The notes below the pieces were generated by a model that was not told where the DNA came from, searched no databases, and saw only the letters and a list, made by a program, of their open reading frames with translations. 64,000 bases of DNA from Promethearchaeati archaeon (GTDB lineage Archaea > Asgardarchaeota > Heimdallarchaeia > Heimdallarchaeales > Heimdallarchaeaceae), in contig JABLTJ010000003.1 in the NCBI GenBank assembly GCA_013166775.1, positions 96,001 to 160,000 of the forward strand, read 5' to 3'. Numbering within the stretch: position 1 is the first letter of the stretch; each line of letters opens with the position of its first letter. The translations under genes were made by a program, and so were the position numbers. Below, one piece after another: positions 48,119-55,031 of this stretch.

Positions 48119-48883
48119 GTGATAAAAATCACTTCAGAAAAAAATGAAGTCTCTTTAGTTGCAGAAATGATTAAAGAATCAGAGTATCTTGTAGTTTTTA
48201 CAGGAGCAGGTATAAGTACTGAATCAGGTTTAGCAGATTTCAGAGGAAAAAATGGTCTCTGGACAAGGAGGGATAAAGGCTTACCTCCTCCAAAATCGAA
48301 ACATTTCGATGAAGTGGAACCAAATCCTGCTCATCTAGCATTAGTTGAGCTGCAAAATCAAGGAAGAATGAAGTTTCTAATTTCGCAGAATGTTGACAAT
48401 CTTCACTTACAATCAGGAATCAAGTTAAATCAAATCTCAGAACTACACGGTAATTATAAATTAGTTAAATGCCTGAAATGTGATTCAAGATTTAGCAGAG
48501 ATGAAGTTGGTTGGATACGAGATATTCATGGAAGAGGTTCAAGAAAAGAACCTCCACAGTCAAACCAACCCATCTGTAAGAAATGCCAAGGACGTCTGAT
48601 ATCTTCCGTGGTGGATTTCAATGATCCCATGCCGGAAAAAGAAGTAGAGCTAGCAAAATACCACTCACTTGAATGTGATTTAATGATTGTAGTAGGTTCC
48701 AGTCTTTCTGTTTTTCCTGCAGCTAATTATCCAAAACTAGCTAAAGACAATGGCGCAAAACTAATTATAATCAACACAGATCCTACAAGATTAGACCACT
48801 TAGCAGATTTGCATATCAGAGAAAAAGCGGGGGAATTTCTCCTAAAGCTCATTAAAGAACTAGAAAAACGTCTTAAATCTTAA
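48119..48883 (+). CDS. NAD-dependent deacylase, sirtuin family (SIRT6/7 class IV-like)
   Basis: TGAGISTESG..DFRG..GLWT, SQNVDNLH..SG, ELHGN, CxxC..CxxC, VGSSL. Confidence 0.92.
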   Translation: MIKITSEKNEVSLVAEMIKESEYLVVFTGAGISTESGLADFRGKNGLWTRRDKGLPPPKSKHFDEVEPNPAHLALVELQNQGRMKFLISQNVDNLHLQSGIKLNQISELHGNYKLVKCLKCDSRFSRDEVGWIRDIHGRGSRKEPPQSNQPICKKCQGRLISSVVDFNDPMPEKEVELAKYHSLECDLMIVVGSSLSVFPAANYPKLAKDNGAKLIIINTDPTRLDHLADLHIREKAGEFLLKLIKELEKRLKS

Positions 48884-48998
48884 TTTCAGAAAAAAAAACT
48901 CACTTATGTAAATTTCAATGATTTTTTAATCTAGAGGAGATTCTTCATACATAGAATACCTATAATTGAATAAGATATAGAAAAAAGAGGTCTAGTAT

Positions 48999-51176
48999 TT
49001 GTCAAATATCTCAGCTAAGGAAATGGAAGTAGTAGAGAGATTCATCAGAATTGGTGAATATTTCGAAGCTTTAGAGTTGATAGATATTATGATAAAATGG
49101 GAGAATCTTGATAATTTGGATCTTCTGAAAGTTAAATTGTATCAGGTAGATATTTTTTTAGATTTGGGAAGGTATAAAGAAGGTCTTCAAACAATAGAAA
49201 AAATCATAACTGACAGTCAAAAATCAGGTTTCAGGGAAATAGAACTATCAGCTTTACTAATACAATCAAAACTCCTAATCTATACTGGAAGATTCAAAGA
49301 ATCTCTAGATATTCTCCTTAAAATAGAGCTCAAATTTGATACTAATCTTAAAAGCAAAACAACTTTTTCTAAAACTCTCAAAGTGAGATTCTTAAGACTA
49401 AAAGGAATATGTTGCAGAGCAACAGGAGATAATGAATCAGCTGAATCCTCCATGATTGAAAGTCTAAGAATTGCTGAAGAATTAAAGAACGAATTAGAAG
49501 TTTCAAAAACGCTTGACAGACTAGCAATGCTGCTTCACCCAAAGGATACTAAAGAAGCGCTAAAATTATTAAAAAGAAGTTTACTCATTAGAAAGGAAAT
49601 CGGAAATAAATATTTCCTAGGTCAAACTATGAACAGATTAGGTATAGTTTATCTTAGAAAAGGAATGCTAGATGAATCATTAGCATATTATATTCGGGGT
49701 TTGGAGTATACGAAATCGTATGAAAATAAAGATTTTCAAGCGATTATCAATATGAATATAGGAACTATCTATAAGAATCAAGGAAAATTAAACAAATCAT
49801 TAGAAAATTATATCAAGAGTCTTAATCTTTCAAGAGAAGTAGATAACAAAAATATGATATCAGCTTCACTCTACAATATCTCAGCAATATATCGTCAAAG
49901 AGGGGAATTAAACAGAGCTTTAAAGTATCAAGAAGAATGTTTAGTTGAATTTAAGCACCTAAATTATCCCAATGGAATATCTGCTTCATTACACAATATA
50001 GGGATTATCAATTATCACAAAGGAAATCTTGAGAAAGCAGATAGTTTTTTCAAAAGGAGCTTAAGTATTAGAGAAGAAGCAAAGAATCATGTGGGTACAG
50101 CTGCTTCAGCTTTTTATTTGATTCAAATATCCTTAGATAAAGGATTACTAGATGACACAAAACATTATCTAAGAAAATTAGAGTTTATTAAAAATAAAAT
50201 CGAGCATAAGCTTGTGAGTCAACAGTATTCTATAGCTGAAGCATTATTACTGAAGGATAGTGCTAGAATTCCAAAGAAAGCGAAAGCAGAAGAACTTCTA
50301 AGGAATGTAATTAAGGACGATATCATAGATCATGAGATAACAACACTAGCATATCTCCTTTTAAGTGATCTCCTTCTTGAAGAACTAAAGTTAACTGGAG
50401 AAAATGAAGTTTTAGAAGAAATAAAAACTTTAACAGACCAGCTTTTCGAGGTGTCGAAAAATCAACAATCATCATCTTTAATGGCGGAAACTTTGTGGCT
50501 TAAATCTCAACTCTTCCTTATCAGTATGGAAATGAATGAAGCAAAACATCTTTTGACTCAAGCACAACTAATAGCTGAAGAAAAGGATTTGAAAAGATTA
50601 GCTTTGAAGATTTCAACTGAATATGATAAACTTATCAATCAAATGAATAAATGGCAAACATTAATGAAACAAGATGTTCCATTAACAGAAAGAATAGCAA
50701 TAGCTGATATCGATAACCTTCTAATTAGAATGATAAAAAGAGAAGAGATCACTCTTCTTGAACATGAAATTGAAGATCCAGTCTTTTTAGTGATTCTCAA
50801 TAAAGATGGGCAAACATTATTTACTCATAGATTCTCAACTCTTTCAAAACTAGATGGAGCTCTTATTGGAGGTTTTATTGCAGCAATCAATTCTTTTGCT
50901 TCAGAGATACTTAAAGCTCCTGGAAACATAGAAAGGATAAAATATCAAGAGTACAATCTAATAATCAAAGCTCATGAAAAAATGCTTTTCACCTATGTTT
51001 ACAAAGGACAATCTTATTCTTCTTTGAATAAACTAAATAATTTTGTAGAAATCATTAAAACTACTAAATTAGTTTGGGAAGCATTAAATGAAGCAGTTGA
51101 GAGACCATCTACTCTAAATGAAATTATAGAAACCACTTTAATTAAAAAAGCTGATCAGATATTCGTGACAAATTAG
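48999..51176 (+). CDS. Tetratricopeptide repeat protein with a C-terminal longin-like domain
   Basis: Repeated NxG.iY...G....AL.Y....L units; C-terminal FLVILNKDGQTLFTHRF...LIGGFIAAINSFASE...IERIKYQEY. Confidence 0.85.
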   Translation: MSNISAKEMEVVERFIRIGEYFEALELIDIMIKWENLDNLDLLKVKLYQVDIFLDLGRYKEGLQTIEKIITDSQKSGFREIELSALLIQSKLLIYTGRFKESLDILLKIELKFDTNLKSKTTFSKTLKVRFLRLKGICCRATGDNESAESSMIESLRIAEELKNELEVSKTLDRLAMLLHPKDTKEALKLLKRSLLIRKEIGNKYFLGQTMNRLGIVYLRKGMLDESLAYYIRGLEYTKSYENKDFQAIINMNIGTIYKNQGKLNKSLENYIKSLNLSREVDNKNMISASLYNISAIYRQRGELNRALKYQEECLVEFKHLNYPNGISASLHNIGIINYHKGNLEKADSFFKRSLSIREEAKNHVGTAASAFYLIQISLDKGLLDDTKHYLRKLEFIKNKIEHKLVSQQYSIAEALLLKDSARIPKKAKAEELLRNVIKDDIIDHEITTLAYLLLSDLLLEELKLTGENEVLEEIKTLTDQLFEVSKNQQSSSLMAETLWLKSQLFLISMEMNEAKHLLTQAQLIAEEKDLKRLALKISTEYDKLINQMNKWQTLMKQDVPLTERIAIADIDNLLIRMIKREEITLLEHEIEDPVFLVILNKDGQTLFTHRFSTLSKLDGALIGGFIAAINSFASEILKAPGNIERIKYQEYNLIIKAHEKMLFTYVYKGQSYSSLNKLNNFVEIIKTTKLVWEALNEAVERPSTLNEIIETTLIKKADQIFVTN

Positions 51177-51189
51177 TAGTTAACTAATT

Positions 51190-52284
51190 CTATCTCCATT
51201 CTACATAAACAGATTCTATCTTTTCTGGTAGATCAATGTTTTTCAGATTGAATATATCTAAGGATAATCTTTTTGGGAAAAAGATGAATTTAGCTTTCTT
51301 GAGAGGTTTAGAATCGAAATAAGGAATGTAAGGCGTTTGAATACCTGCCCAACCGATTTTTTTAGCTTCGAAGCACAATCCTTTTGCTAAGTCAGATGCT
51401 TCTTTTGAAGACAATCTGTGTATATGTACAGCATCTAACCAACCAAATGGAGTTTGGTTACCAAAACCTGCTAGGACGAATTCCCAAGCAAAAATAAAAC
51501 CATTTATTTTACCAATATCATTTTCATGTACAACACAAACTACATTCGGATTATTTAGCATCCACTTGAGATCCTCATAATTAGGAACAATCGAAATTTG
51601 GTTTCTTTCAGCGAAATCTCCAATGAGCTCGAATATTTGGTCAATATCGTTTTTCTGATATCTTCTGACAGATGAACTTTTCGATTCTCTTACTTCTTGT
51701 AATAATTTGAAAACTAGCTTTTCGTACCACTTTAATTTTACAACGGAAGCTGCTATTTTTGCATCAAAAATTCTAATAACATACTTAGTAAGATAAAAAG
51801 CTCTTCTCATTGGAATATTGGTCTCTCTTGCAACAGCTTCTGCTGTATCAATCCCTCTTTGTTCTGGTTCAAAAAGAGCGAAACCACAATCATAACCTGC
51901 TGCTAGTCCCATTTCCAGCATTTTCTTTCCCATTGATTTTGCTAGACCTTGTCTCTGATGATCAGAACGAACAGAAATCCAGGAAGGAATTGCTGATTTA
52001 TACACTTTTTCGTTTACAGCTAGTTTTCGAGGAATCAAACCAAAAAAACCAACTAATTCATTTGTTGGTTTATGTATTACTCTAATAAAGAAGTCTTTAT
52101 CGATAGAAGGACCTCCAAAAATTGTTTTAAAAGTCTGTTCTGTGAAAATAATACTAGCTCCAACTAGCTGTGCATCTGCATCAGCAAGAAAAGCTGTAGT
52201 AATCAGTTTTGAATATTCTTCAATATTGCTCTCGTCTAGGGTAAATTGCTCAATACTGTATTCCGATTCTTCTTTCTTATTCAT
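51190..52284 (-). CDS. Tandem-GNAT acyltransferase resembling glycylpeptide N-myristoyltransferase
   Basis: ELVGFFGLIP, SVRSDHQRQGLA (acyl-CoA binding), second GNAT half VRRYQKNDID...HENDIGKINGF...EAKKIGW...KKAKF. Confidence 0.75.
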   Translation of the reverse strand: MNKKEESEYSIEQFTLDESNIEEYSKLITTAFLADADAQLVGASIIFTEQTFKTIFGGPSIDKDFFIRVIHKPTNELVGFFGLIPRKLAVNEKVYKSAIPSWISVRSDHQRQGLAKSMGKKMLEMGLAAGYDCGFALFEPEQRGIDTAEAVARETNIPMRRAFYLTKYVIRIFDAKIAASVVKLKWYEKLVFKLLQEVRESKSSSVRRYQKNDIDQIFELIGDFAERNQISIVPNYEDLKWMLNNPNVVCVVHENDIGKINGFIFAWEFVLAGFGNQTPFGWLDAVHIHRLSSKEASDLAKGLCFEAKKIGWAGIQTPYIPYFDSKPLKKAKFIFFPKRLSLDIFNLKNIDLPEKIESVYVEWR

Positions 52285-52431
52285 ATAATCACTTGAAATT
52301 ACTATTTATGATGATTTGCAGATTCGTTTCTTTAATTGCTGTTTTATATAAATCTTACTTGAATTTATGAGAGTAGGGAAACATGAAATTTTGAAATTAG
52401 TTTTTTAAACAAGTTATTCAGTTTATTTTAT

Positions 52432-54426
52432 ATGATTGATTTCAAAGATTTAGTAAGAAAGAATTATTCCATTGTAATTCTATTCACAATACTCTTCCTT
52501 TTCTTCCTACAAGCTCTCTCTGACATAGTCGAGAGAATTTATGCTTTTGCTTTACTTAACCTGGAACCAGATGAGAATATTCTAGGACTTTTATTCTTCT
52601 TATCACCAGTAGTTTTGCTTTTTTTTAGAAAGAAATTCCCTGAAATAGCAATGTTAATAGTAGGAGAAATAATGATTATATCTAGACTAATTGAACCTCT
52701 TGTGACTAAGCAAGGAATCTACATCACAGCAGGATTAACAGTAGCAAGTTTTCTAATATTCCTCCCTACTTTTTATGGGAGAACAAAAGATAAGAACAAG
52801 AATATTGGCTTAGATTTGGGTATAAGTCTCGCAATTGCTGTTTCTCTCTCAATTCTTTTCAGAACAATCAACGCTTCAATAGATATCTCTCAATACAAAC
52901 TAGGGCAAATTATAGGATGGATATTAGGTTTAATTGCTTCATTCATTCTATTTGGTTACTTCCTAACAGAAAAAGAGTCAGTAATTAAAGACGAAGAGAT
53001 TGAAATAAAAGCTAGTTTCTGGAAAGTTCTAGGATTAACAATAGGAATTTTTAGTATCTTTGTGATTTTATGGTTCGTTTTCATGAGTCCGACTGTGATA
53101 ACAAGATGGACTGAAGGAGATTATATAGGAATTATAGTTGGAATTCTATCTATGATAGCAATTTCTGTAACAGTAAAACTGTGGAGACCTGATGTAATAA
53201 ATAAAATTAAAACCTGGATGTTATGGGTTTGGAACGGTTTATTCTGTTTGTCACTCACACTAACAGTATTAGTTCATCAGTTGAGATTTCCAGATGATCA
53301 TACTCTTTATCCCATAGTTGCTCCTCAAACTGCATGGTTCCATCAGATTCCCCTAGCACTGATGATTATCAGTTCACCAATAATATACCTTGATTTCCTT
53401 TATTTAACAAGAGAAATCATTACACTAAAACCATCGACTAGAAAACTAGGTGGAGCATTTTTAATAGGTGGATTGTACTTGGTAATTATGCTCTTTTTCC
53501 AGATTCTTCCCAACATATGGGGTTACTTAGAACCTATAAGTCCAGGATTTAGGGACAAATACTGGCTAGCTTTTCTTATTCCAAGTCTTCTAGCAGGTTT
53601 GGCAATAATTCTAGTTAAAAAGGAATCTTTGAATCTTGGAAAATTAAAAAGATCATATAATTCCAAAATTATAACTGTTGTAGTAGTAGGAATGATTTTT
53701 GTGGGAACCTTGGTTGGTGCATTTATAACTGCTCCAAAACCAGACTATTCTGCTGCAGGTAAAACTTCCCTCATAATTATGACATATAATATTCAACAAG
53801 GAGTGAATGTTTCCGGAGATAGAAATTACGATGGACAATTAGAGTTAATCCAAAGCATTGATCCAGATATTATTGGTTTACAGGAATGTGATCCTACAAG
53901 AATATCAGGTGGAAATTTAGATGTTGTAAGATATTTTGCTACTAAATTAAACATGTATTCATATTACGGTCCGAAAACAGTCACCAACACGTATGGATGC
54001 GCAATTCTTTCAAAATTTCCTATATCAAATGCGGAATCATTTTTCATGTTCAGTGATGAAGAACAAATAGGTTCATCACAAGTTCAGATTACTGTAGGTA
54101 GTTCTATCTTCAATGTATTTGTAAATCATCCTTCAGGGGACGAAGACATAACCACTGTTTATCAACAGCAAGAGATTTTGAGCAGGACAATAGGTCTTTC
54201 AAACATCATTTTTATGGGTGATTTCAATTTTAGACCTTATTCACAGGAATACAATCTGACTTTAGATGCAGGATTAGAAGATTCTTGGTCTCTAAAATGG
54301 GGAATACCTGCGGATGATAGAATAGATCACATCTTTCTTAGTACAGGAAGAATAGTTCTTGGTGCACAGTATATTGAAGAAGGACAATCTGATCATCCCG
54401 CATATTGGATAGAAATGCAACTGTAG
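52432..54426 (+). CDS. Multi-TM protein with a C-terminal EEP domain, Cwh43/PGAP2IP-like
   Basis: About 13 TM, then MTYNIQQG, DIIGLQE, LNMYSYYGP...TYGCAILSKFPI, MGDFN, IDHIF, SDHPA. Confidence 0.82.
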   Translation: MIDFKDLVRKNYSIVILFTILFLFFLQALSDIVERIYAFALLNLEPDENILGLLFFLSPVVLLFFRKKFPEIAMLIVGEIMIISRLIEPLVTKQGIYITAGLTVASFLIFLPTFYGRTKDKNKNIGLDLGISLAIAVSLSILFRTINASIDISQYKLGQIIGWILGLIASFILFGYFLTEKESVIKDEEIEIKASFWKVLGLTIGIFSIFVILWFVFMSPTVITRWTEGDYIGIIVGILSMIAISVTVKLWRPDVINKIKTWMLWVWNGLFCLSLTLTVLVHQLRFPDDHTLYPIVAPQTAWFHQIPLALMIISSPIIYLDFLYLTREIITLKPSTRKLGGAFLIGGLYLVIMLFFQILPNIWGYLEPISPGFRDKYWLAFLIPSLLAGLAIILVKKESLNLGKLKRSYNSKIITVVVVGMIFVGTLVGAFITAPKPDYSAAGKTSLIIMTYNIQQGVNVSGDRNYDGQLELIQSIDPDIIGLQECDPTRISGGNLDVVRYFATKLNMYSYYGPKTVTNTYGCAILSKFPISNAESFFMFSDEEQIGSSQVQITVGSSIFNVFVNHPSGDEDITTVYQQQEILSRTIGLSNIIFMGDFNFRPYSQEYNLTLDAGLEDSWSLKWGIPADDRIDHIFLSTGRIVLGAQYIEEGQSDHPAYWIEMQL

Positions 54427-54530: not shown

Positions 54531-55031
54531 GTGGATTTTATAATTCGAACTATGAAGAAGAACGACTCTTCAGATAAGGAGTTTTTTGACTATACGAATT
54601 TCGAATCTTATAAAACAACGTTAAAGGATTCAGAAAAATACTCAGAAGAAGAGTTACATAAGAAATTTCAGCAATTTGAAGAAGATGATCCATTAGATAT
54701 CAATGAATCAAAACACTCTGTTTTCATTTTGGAAACATATAATGGAATAAAAGTAGGTTTAATTTGGATAACTAATCGAGAACCATTTTGGAGATTCAAC
54801 GATCAACTTGCATGGATTTACAATTTACATACTATTCCTGAGTTCAGAAAACAAGGATTAGCGAGGTTATTAATGATTAGAGCAGAAGAATGGGCAGTTG
54901 ATCAAAATTTGAATTCAATTGCATTGCATGTGTTGAATGATAATACATTTGCAAGAAATTTGTATGAATCTTTGGGATATGAGTTAGTGGTAACTCACAA
55001 TACAAGTTGTTTTTATGAGAAAAAAGTGTAA
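54531..55031 (+). CDS. GNAT family N-acetyltransferase
   Basis: PEFRKQGLAR, LHV..DN..ARNLYESLGY. Confidence 0.9.
   Translation: MDFIIRTMKKNDSSDKEFFDYTNFESYKTTLKDSEKYSEEELHKKFQQFEEDDPLDINESKHSVFILETYNGIKVGLIWITNREPFWRFNDQLAWIYNLHTIPEFRKQGLARLLMIRAEEWAVDQNLNSIALHVLNDNTFARNLYESLGYELVVTHNTSCFYEKKV

Follow-up and report, generated by a model that had tools for sequence, protein, structure and literature searches.

An intact gene for a predicted acyltransferase of N-myristoyltransferase type in a Heimdallarchaeal genome, from an Asgard subfamily of a wider prokaryotic family

The literature takes N-myristoylation as a marker of eukaryogenesis. N-Myristoyltransferase (NMT) employs its own terminal carboxylate as the catalytic base. 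Among other proteins with two GNAT domains, Eis carries a C-terminal SCP2-like third domain and has a length of ∼400 amino acids (aa); HisAT/NAT16, MshD, glucosamine N-acetyltransferases and, in part, Eis act on metabolites. NMT has been stated to be a eukaryote-only enzyme (PMC12219266, citing Meinnel et al. 2020). The same study on HisAT/NAT16 defines NMT-type double-GNAT proteins as those whose C terminus ends in the active site, reports that predicted structures of this type are “surprisingly” found in archaea and bacteria, with Thorarchaeota A0A3L6J856 and Euryarchaeota A0A2E6C328 as NMT-type models in a supplementary table, and notes that HisAT has a Trp of the β7–β8 hairpin where NMT places its C terminus (PMC12219266). 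The gene analyzed here lies in a 64,000-nucleotide stretch of DNA (the window) from a Promethearchaeati archaeon of the Heimdallarchaeaceae (GenBank assembly GCA_013166775.1, contig JABLTJ010000003.1, positions 96,001–160,000) and encodes a 364-aa protein that had been described from its sequence as NMT-like (the original prediction; Table 1). It is a real and intact gene of NMT type, partly anticipated in print, and its product has a predicted acyltransferase activity. The published study does not describe the Asgard family to which this protein belongs, nor the invariant Trp-Arg terminus or the distribution of that family.

The open reading frame (ORF) begins with ATG and runs without interruption to a C-terminal YVEWR followed by a stop codon. 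Its source genome comprises 3.85 Mb in 115 contigs and is 88.7% complete, and the best database relative of the protein, at 90% identity, comes from a Heimdallarchaeota metagenome-assembled genome (MAG). Identity to eukaryotic NMT is 13 to 19%. The Pfam NMT N-domain (PF01233) nonetheless matched the 364-aa protein at 31.2 bits, passing the cut-off of 25, and was found in 35 of 40 family members at E ≤ 0.01. By a small margin the top Pfam match was Acetyltransf_9 (34.4 bits, first lobe), the two matches together spanning residues 17 to 125; no NCBIfam match was obtained. When the single sequence was searched against the PDB, the ten best matches were all NMTs (E ∼5e-5). A family profile (A1) built from 40 diverse homologues ranked 35 NMT sequences ahead of everything else in the PDB, with yeast NMT at E 4.9e-14, and matched NMT in both lobes (residues 18–129 and 200–271). 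The next protein that was not an NMT was AAC(3)-I, at E 0.02, while Eis was reached at E 0.69; proteins of HisAT type gave no match in the PDB searches with either the single sequence or the A1 profile, and FemABX proteins gave no Pfam or PDB sequence match. Likeness to NMT is therefore well past chance at three independent levels, namely the single sequence, the family profile and the structure. Of the segment pairings listed in the original prediction, ELVGFFGLIP, VRRYQKNDIDQIFELI and VHENDIGKINGF were reproduced in the HMMER alignments, whereas the pairings within the last 100 residues are borne out solely by structural superposition.

An AlphaFold2 model of the protein made without templates had a predicted local distance difference test score (pLDDT) of 94.3 and a predicted template-modeling (TM) score of 0.90. 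Searched with Foldseek against the PDB, the model returned NMTs for all of the top 50 matches (E ∼1e-22, TM score 0.73–0.80). An exhaustive structure search with VIA-align over 48,161 representative chains gave yeast NMT at Z 32.2 (root-mean-square deviation [rmsd] 2.7 Å over 334 residues) and Cryptosporidium NMT at Z 30.6. Alignments to NMT structures ranged from Z 32 to 34 with an rmsd of 2.5 to 2.7 Å over ∼332 residues and covered model residues 6 to 364, which bears out the proposed colinearity with the NMT catalytic core. The protein and eukaryotic NMT (EC 2.3.1.97; PF01233 plus PF02799; yeast Nmt1p, 2p6e; human NMT1, 5o9s) accordingly have a common tandem GNAT fold. Columns invariant in the C-terminal lobe of the A1 alignment are R207, D213, G311–W312, P318 and K338.

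Other tandem GNAT proteins scored well below NMT in the same search. MAB_4324 (7q3a; Z 22.6) and Eis (3sxn, 3r1k; Z 20.3, rmsd 6.0 Å) share the tandem GNAT core and the Acetyltransf_9 match, yet fall at Z 20 to 23 as compared to 32 to 34 for NMT. HisAT/NAT16 (9emd) and Ta0821 (3c26) are likewise double GNAT proteins with one coenzyme A (CoA) site, and Asgard homologues of them exist, but HisAT aligned at Z 14.4 with an rmsd of 4.7 Å and the C terminus of the 364-aa protein follows the NMT pattern instead. FemX (4ii9) aligned at Z 13.2. These values bear on the proposal that the protein is a generic tandem GNAT of Eis/FemABX type whose NMT likeness is superficial or convergent. That proposal draws on a fold that is common to all tandem GNATs and on the Z scores of 16 to 20 given by Eis and its relatives, but it is extremely improbable given the distance between NMT and Eis in both profile E value and structural score, the absence of the Eis-like third domain (the two lobes take up all 364 aa) and a C terminus that matches that of NMT residue for residue.

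The correspondence at the C terminus could be followed to the last residue. Model residue 364 pairs with the final residue of six NMTs (human 496, yeast 455, Candida albicans 451, Aspergillus fumigatus 492, Leishmania major 421 and Plasmodium vivax 410), which confirms by structural superposition the claim that the protein ends at the position equivalent to the NMT chain end. With truncated human NMT1 as a control, the alignment ended at 361–493 for ΔC3 and at 362–494 for ΔC2; since the alignment ends track the truncations, R364 is placed in register with Q496. Most homologues are 360 to 365 aa long, 118 of 120 end in Arg and 117 of 120 in Trp-Arg, and the two that lack the terminal Arg look truncated or frameshifted. 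The chain end of the family is under selection, its near-invariant terminus agreeing with the C-terminal register. While the register is common to both groups, NMTs end in a hydrophobic residue or Gln and the Asgard family in an invariant [DE]-W-R. Placement of the model C terminus also agrees with NMT, as it superposes on the buried catalytic C terminus of that enzyme; the counter-case raised with the original prediction, best matches of Eis/FemABX type with an exposed C terminus, did not apply. By analogy with NMT, the α-carboxylate of R364 is the predicted catalytic base.

Active-site pairs were taken from the HMMER profile alignment to yeast NMT and counted by hand. In NMT the backbone amides of F170–L171 form the oxyanion hole; W102–I103 of the 364-aa protein occupy the same aligned positions and may have the same role, and the preceding S101 aligns with yeast N169. 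The NMT signature EINFLCxHK aligns here with AIPSWISVRS, for which the family consensus is xIPxWLxVHxxH, such that the aromatic–Leu/Ile pair and the V(H) are kept and the E and N are not. The original prediction that NMT signatures are not conserved consequently stands for KFGxGDG (see below) and needs softening for EINFLCxHK, part of which survives in the family consensus IPxWLxVHxxH. A GNAT Q/R-x-x-G-x-G/A loop for pyrophosphate binding is present at Q110–A115, with A115 and the nearby H109 conserved at 90% or more in the family. The second lobe has no CoA-loop motif, and an intact GNAT CoA loop is found in the first lobe only, matching the single-site design of NMT; the protein thus probably has a single CoA site. 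Like eukaryotic NMT, the protein has just one CoA loop, located in the first lobe, and the two align over the oxyanion-hole strand.

Our preferred reading, to which we assign a probability of about 0.75, is that the protein is an active acyl-CoA-dependent N-acyltransferase of NMT structural type from an Asgard subfamily of a wider NMT-like family, with catalysis predicted by analogy. In the proposed mechanism, one acyl-CoA would sit in the N-terminal GNAT lobe with its pyrophosphate gripped by the Q110–A115 loop, and the backbone amides of the W102–I103 bulge would polarize the thioester. The acceptor amine would lodge in a cleft made mainly by the C-terminal lobe, and the C-terminal carboxylate of R364 would return into the active site and deprotonate it.

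Several observations weigh against this reading. The Pfam NMT_C domain (PF02799) reached only 15.9 bits at residues 199 to 264, below its cut-off of 27.9, and was matched at E ≤ 0.01 in 4 of 40 Asgard-family members. A profile of the last 105 residues found no PDB match at E ≤ 10, as a result of which the C-terminal motif pairings are not confirmable by sequence. In the model, pLDDT is 79 over the last four residues, and the predicted NMT-like burial of the C terminus, like the depth of the acyl pocket, is read from the superposition ranges only. The structural alignment starts at model residue 6, which corresponds to human 153 and yeast 76, and therefore the equivalents of human NMT1 115–152 and of the N-terminal extension are missing; in NMT the former segment wraps acyl-CoA and the latter binds the ribosome. 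No KFGxGDG-like motif is present in the 364-aa sequence, where the structurally equivalent stretch reads KKAKFIFFPKR. The Thr of the NMT motif YTAG helps hold the glycine amine, and in the alignment to P. vivax NMT Y131–D132 pairs with the Y-T of that motif; an acidic or amide residue therefore takes the place of the glycine-holding Thr, the position equivalent to yeast T205 being Asp or Gln in the family. None of the three best Arf-like GTPases or of the two ESCRT-III proteins of the genome has Gly2. Fatty-acyl metabolism is represented by one acyl-CoA dehydrogenase and two strong acyl-CoA-synthetase-like (AMP-binding) matches, and no ACBP was found in the genome. With acyl-CoA genes sparse and ACBP lacking, a long-chain acyl-CoA pool is not evident, while the gene counts are uninformative either way on acyl-CoA supply.

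The acidic residues with which NMT recognizes positions 5 and 6 of its substrate, a peptide-recognition signature, are also lacking from the 364-aa sequence. The protein is not a canonical glycylpeptide N-myristoyltransferase, and the earlier suggestion that its substrate and acyl donor may differ from those of NMT held, the peptide-recognition signatures being without conservation. A genuine glycylpeptide N-myristoyltransferase, adding C14 onto the N-terminal Gly of Asgard proteins co- or post-translationally, would agree with NMT being the closest characterized relative in both sequence and structure, with the identical C-terminal register and with the partly kept oxyanion-hole strand (xIPxWLxVH versus EINFLCVHK). 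We nevertheless regard it as very unlikely. In addition to the subthreshold NMT_C match, the missing KFGxGDG motif, the unmatched C-terminal 105 aa, the missing equivalent of human 115–152 and the sparse fatty-acyl-CoA metabolism, the classical ancient substrates carry other residues at position 2. The Arf-like GTPases begin MSMFGSFSSWL, MSLMSNFSRWL and MSLFANLFSRTK, N termini that are amphipathic like that of Arf1 but have Ser2 in place of the myristoylated Gly2 of eukaryotic Arf1, and the ESCRT-III proteins begin MF and MV. Asgard Arfs have likewise been reported to be without myristoylation signals (PMC11914678; bioRxiv 10.1101/2024.02.28.582541).

For the acceptor of the preferred N-acyltransferase, our best guess, a tentative one, is an amino group on a peptide or protein, recognized through a specificity that differs from the Gly-x-x-x-S/T signal of eukaryotes; we rate a small amine or an amino acid almost as highly. 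The latter possibility corresponds to an enzyme with NMT-type architecture that transfers an N-acyl, probably acetyl, group to a metabolite, an alternative that must be taken seriously although we do not favor it. Most characterized prokaryotic tandem GNATs act on small molecules, and the structural matches that follow NMT (7q3a, 3sxn, 2wpw, 5kf1, 1ozp and 9emd) are of this kind. The narrow lead of Acetyltransf_9 in Pfam and the acidic residue at the T205-equivalent position are consistent with such an acceptor, whose carboxylate or phosphate could be bound by the conserved KKAK, K338 and the C-terminal Arg, the last two of which are invariant. Conversely, no conserved link to biosynthetic genes was seen in 21 loci, full-length conservation between Loki and Heimdall members is strong (45–50% identity), and no small-molecule tandem GNAT exceeded Z 22.6, as compared to 32 to 34 for NMT.

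A word-index search recovered 128 homologues, annotated solely as “GNAT family N-acetyltransferase”. Most of the homologues labeled by taxon come from Asgard archaea (Heimdall, Loki, Thor and Gerd), while two bear the labels Zixibacteria and Bathyarchaeia. Among 399 Asgard genomes, 77 contained any match, and strong matches clustered in few Asgard families (26 of 30 genomes in f1, 12 of 12 in f7, 11 of 14 in f19 and 2 of 4 in f21), the protein family being near-universal in three of them. The identity between Loki and Heimdall members extends over the whole length, with a mean column identity of 53%, and the cultivated Candidatus Lokiarchaeum ossiferum carries a member (P0102). In a tree of family sequences, the Asgard sequences formed one clade (SH-aLRT 99) with the Loki copies basal and about three Heimdall subclades, and the window copy was one of four sequences in a small clade (support 100). 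Its closest relatives are 76 to 90% identical and full length.

The genome also holds a second family copy, on contig C16. An Arf-family GTPase ORF is located two genes from the C16 copy, probably by chance because the genome has 29 Arf-family matches. The presence of two copies, together with an H106R substitution at a site where 82% of other A1 members have His, could be taken to mean that the window copy is a paralogue that has lost catalysis and serves a structural or regulatory purpose. This would be most surprising, since the only other departure from positions conserved at 80% or more is F168Y, all remaining ones being kept, including the CoA loop and the Trp-Arg terminus, and since all 33 changes fixed relative to the sister clade are conservative and show an even spread, and the closest relatives retain their full length. 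The divergence of the window copy as a paralogue shows no sign of new function.

For the wider family, 1.84 billion representatives were scanned exhaustively with HMMER and gave only 80 matches. The distant relatives are 19 to 26% identical and 328 to 411 aa long (∼330–410 aa for the wider family), and their chains stop in the same column of the alignment, the final residues being either [YF]-x-[DE]-x-R or an NMT-like ..E-Q-x-[IL]. Compared with hhalign, the Asgard and distant sets matched end to end over 348 columns with a probability of 100% (E 1.3e-60), and the final Arg is the last position in both profiles. Some of the distant members outscore the Asgard family in Pfam for NMT and NMT_C, the latter being matched in 10 of 34 distant members versus 4 of 40 Asgard members. 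In the ESM Atlas, the clusters nearest to the model are bacterial (Aminicenantota, TM 0.88; Pseudomonadota, 0.86; Acidobacteriota, 0.82), slightly above eukaryotic NMT (TM 0.81) and followed by giant-virus NMT (TM 0.74). A bacterial member was located in an Anaerolineae MAG (L023/L024; Table 1), and no other genome in a sample of 301 from its phylum had a match at E ≤ 1e-10; the wider family is thus sporadic in that phylum and stable in parts of Asgard. The 364-aa protein is a member of an Asgard subfamily within a wider, uncharacterized prokaryotic family of NMT-like proteins, and the bacterial members mean that an NMT-like protein is not exclusive to Asgard archaea and eukaryotes. An alternative raised with the original prediction, that homologues group in a broad bacterial GNAT clade unrelated to NMT, did not apply.

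Gene neighborhoods were compared by clustering the ORFs of 23 loci, comprising 21 distinct homologue loci, the window region and one duplicate of the window region. No neighbor was conserved beyond genus g1 in the clustered loci, as expected of a general modifying enzyme rather than a pathway enzyme. Divergent from the NMT-like gene in the window is a multi-pass membrane protein of 664 aa whose C-terminal domain is of endonuclease/exonuclease/phosphatase type; the protein matches PF23226 (PGAP2IP C-terminal nuclease-like; 78 bits) and resembles Cwh43/PGAP2IP, a eukaryotic lipid-remodeling protein. On the other side, a 725-aa TPR protein adjoins the NMT-like gene in genus g1 genomes only; its last ∼130 residues have no Pfam match and might form a small domain of roadblock or longin type. 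Two further genes less than 4 kb from the NMT-like gene encode a deacylase of the Sir2 family (116 bits) and a GNAT protein with a single domain (60 bits). Sir2 lies within ∼10 kb of a family member in the window and in loci L014, L022, L018 and L019, all of genus g1; L020 has the same gene order but ends before the point at which Sir2 would be reached, and the f7 and Loki copies have no Sir2 nearby. A module of Sir2, TPR, NMT-like and Cwh43-like genes was considered as a property of the family and rejected, as these neighbors recur in close relatives (g1) only. Within genus g1 (L014, L022, L018–L020 and window positions 48119–54426), neighborhoods are similar while the family copies fall into three weakly separated subclades at 53 to 57% identity; the Sir2, TPR, c1, c5 and membrane-protein neighbors are 43 to 62% identical between these genomes, and the copy pattern may reflect ordinary divergence and not paralogue replacement. 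In the region upstream of the NMT-like gene, GTGAT might serve as a ribosome-binding site and the TATA-like TTTATATA as a promoter, as read directly from the DNA.

Table 1. Positions of the NMT-like gene, its predicted functional elements, related genes and neighbors. Coordinates without a prefix refer to the window; prefixed coordinates refer to contigs (C), loci (L) or genomes (G).
Feature	Coordinates	Strand	Basis or remark
Whole gene, 364-aa NMT-type double-GNAT protein	51190..52284	-	ORF list and translation; span counts the stop codon
N-terminal GNAT lobe, residues 6–172, predicted acyl-CoA-binding	51769..52269	-	Pfam; profile alignment to yeast NMT 89–197; model secondary structure
W102–I103, aligned with oxyanion-hole pair F170–L171 of yeast NMT	51976..51981	-	HMMER profile alignment; translation check
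Q110-R-Q-G-L-A115, GNAT pyrophosphate-binding loop	51940..51957	-	Aligned to NMT R-S-K-R-L-(T/A) loop, yeast R178–T183
C-terminal GNAT lobe, residues 206–346, predicted acceptor-binding	51247..51669	-	Weak NMT_C match; profile 200–271 to yeast 255–334; structural alignment
C-terminal tail Y360-V-E-W-R364, α-carboxylate of R364 predicted catalytic base	51193..51207	-	Superposition; homologue ends
Upstream region	52285..52360	-	GTGAT 5 nt 5′ of ATG; TATA-like box TTTATATA ∼60 nt upstream; direct sequence reading
Second family copy, same genome	C16:89747-90832 (L001:754-1848)	-	364 aa, 57% identical, ends YFDWR
Arf-family GTPase ORF near second copy	C16:92789-93304		
Three best Arf-like GTPases of the genome	C76:86315-86836, C47:16147-16656, C105:825-1340		
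Bacterial member, Anaerolineae MAG	G399:C93:5623-6672 (L024)		73% identical to P0157, which ends ..VFEQVI
Sir2-family deacylase	48119-48883	+	
TPR protein, 725 aa	48999-51176	+	
Multi-pass membrane protein, 664 aa	52432-54426	+	
Single-domain GNAT	54531-55031	+	

The novelty of these observations is tempered by the NMT-type folds in prokaryotes already in print (PMC12219266). A more far-reaching interpretation, which we consider unlikely, is that the Asgard NMT-like enzymes attach fatty-acyl groups to proteins, at N-terminal or lysine amines, and that eukaryotic NMT descended from the prokaryotic family. If so, protein lipidation for membrane targeting would predate eukaryotes, and Gly specificity and the ribosome-binding extension would have been gained later by eukaryotic NMT. 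Because the wider family is also bacterial, it does not follow that NMT arose in Asgard archaea. The Asgard family nonetheless shares the odd device of NMT, a predicted use of its own C-terminal carboxylate, has a near-invariant chain end and is near-universal in several Heimdall and Loki lineages, and this combination of an NMT-like device and its conservation in Asgard archaea makes the origin of NMT directly testable.

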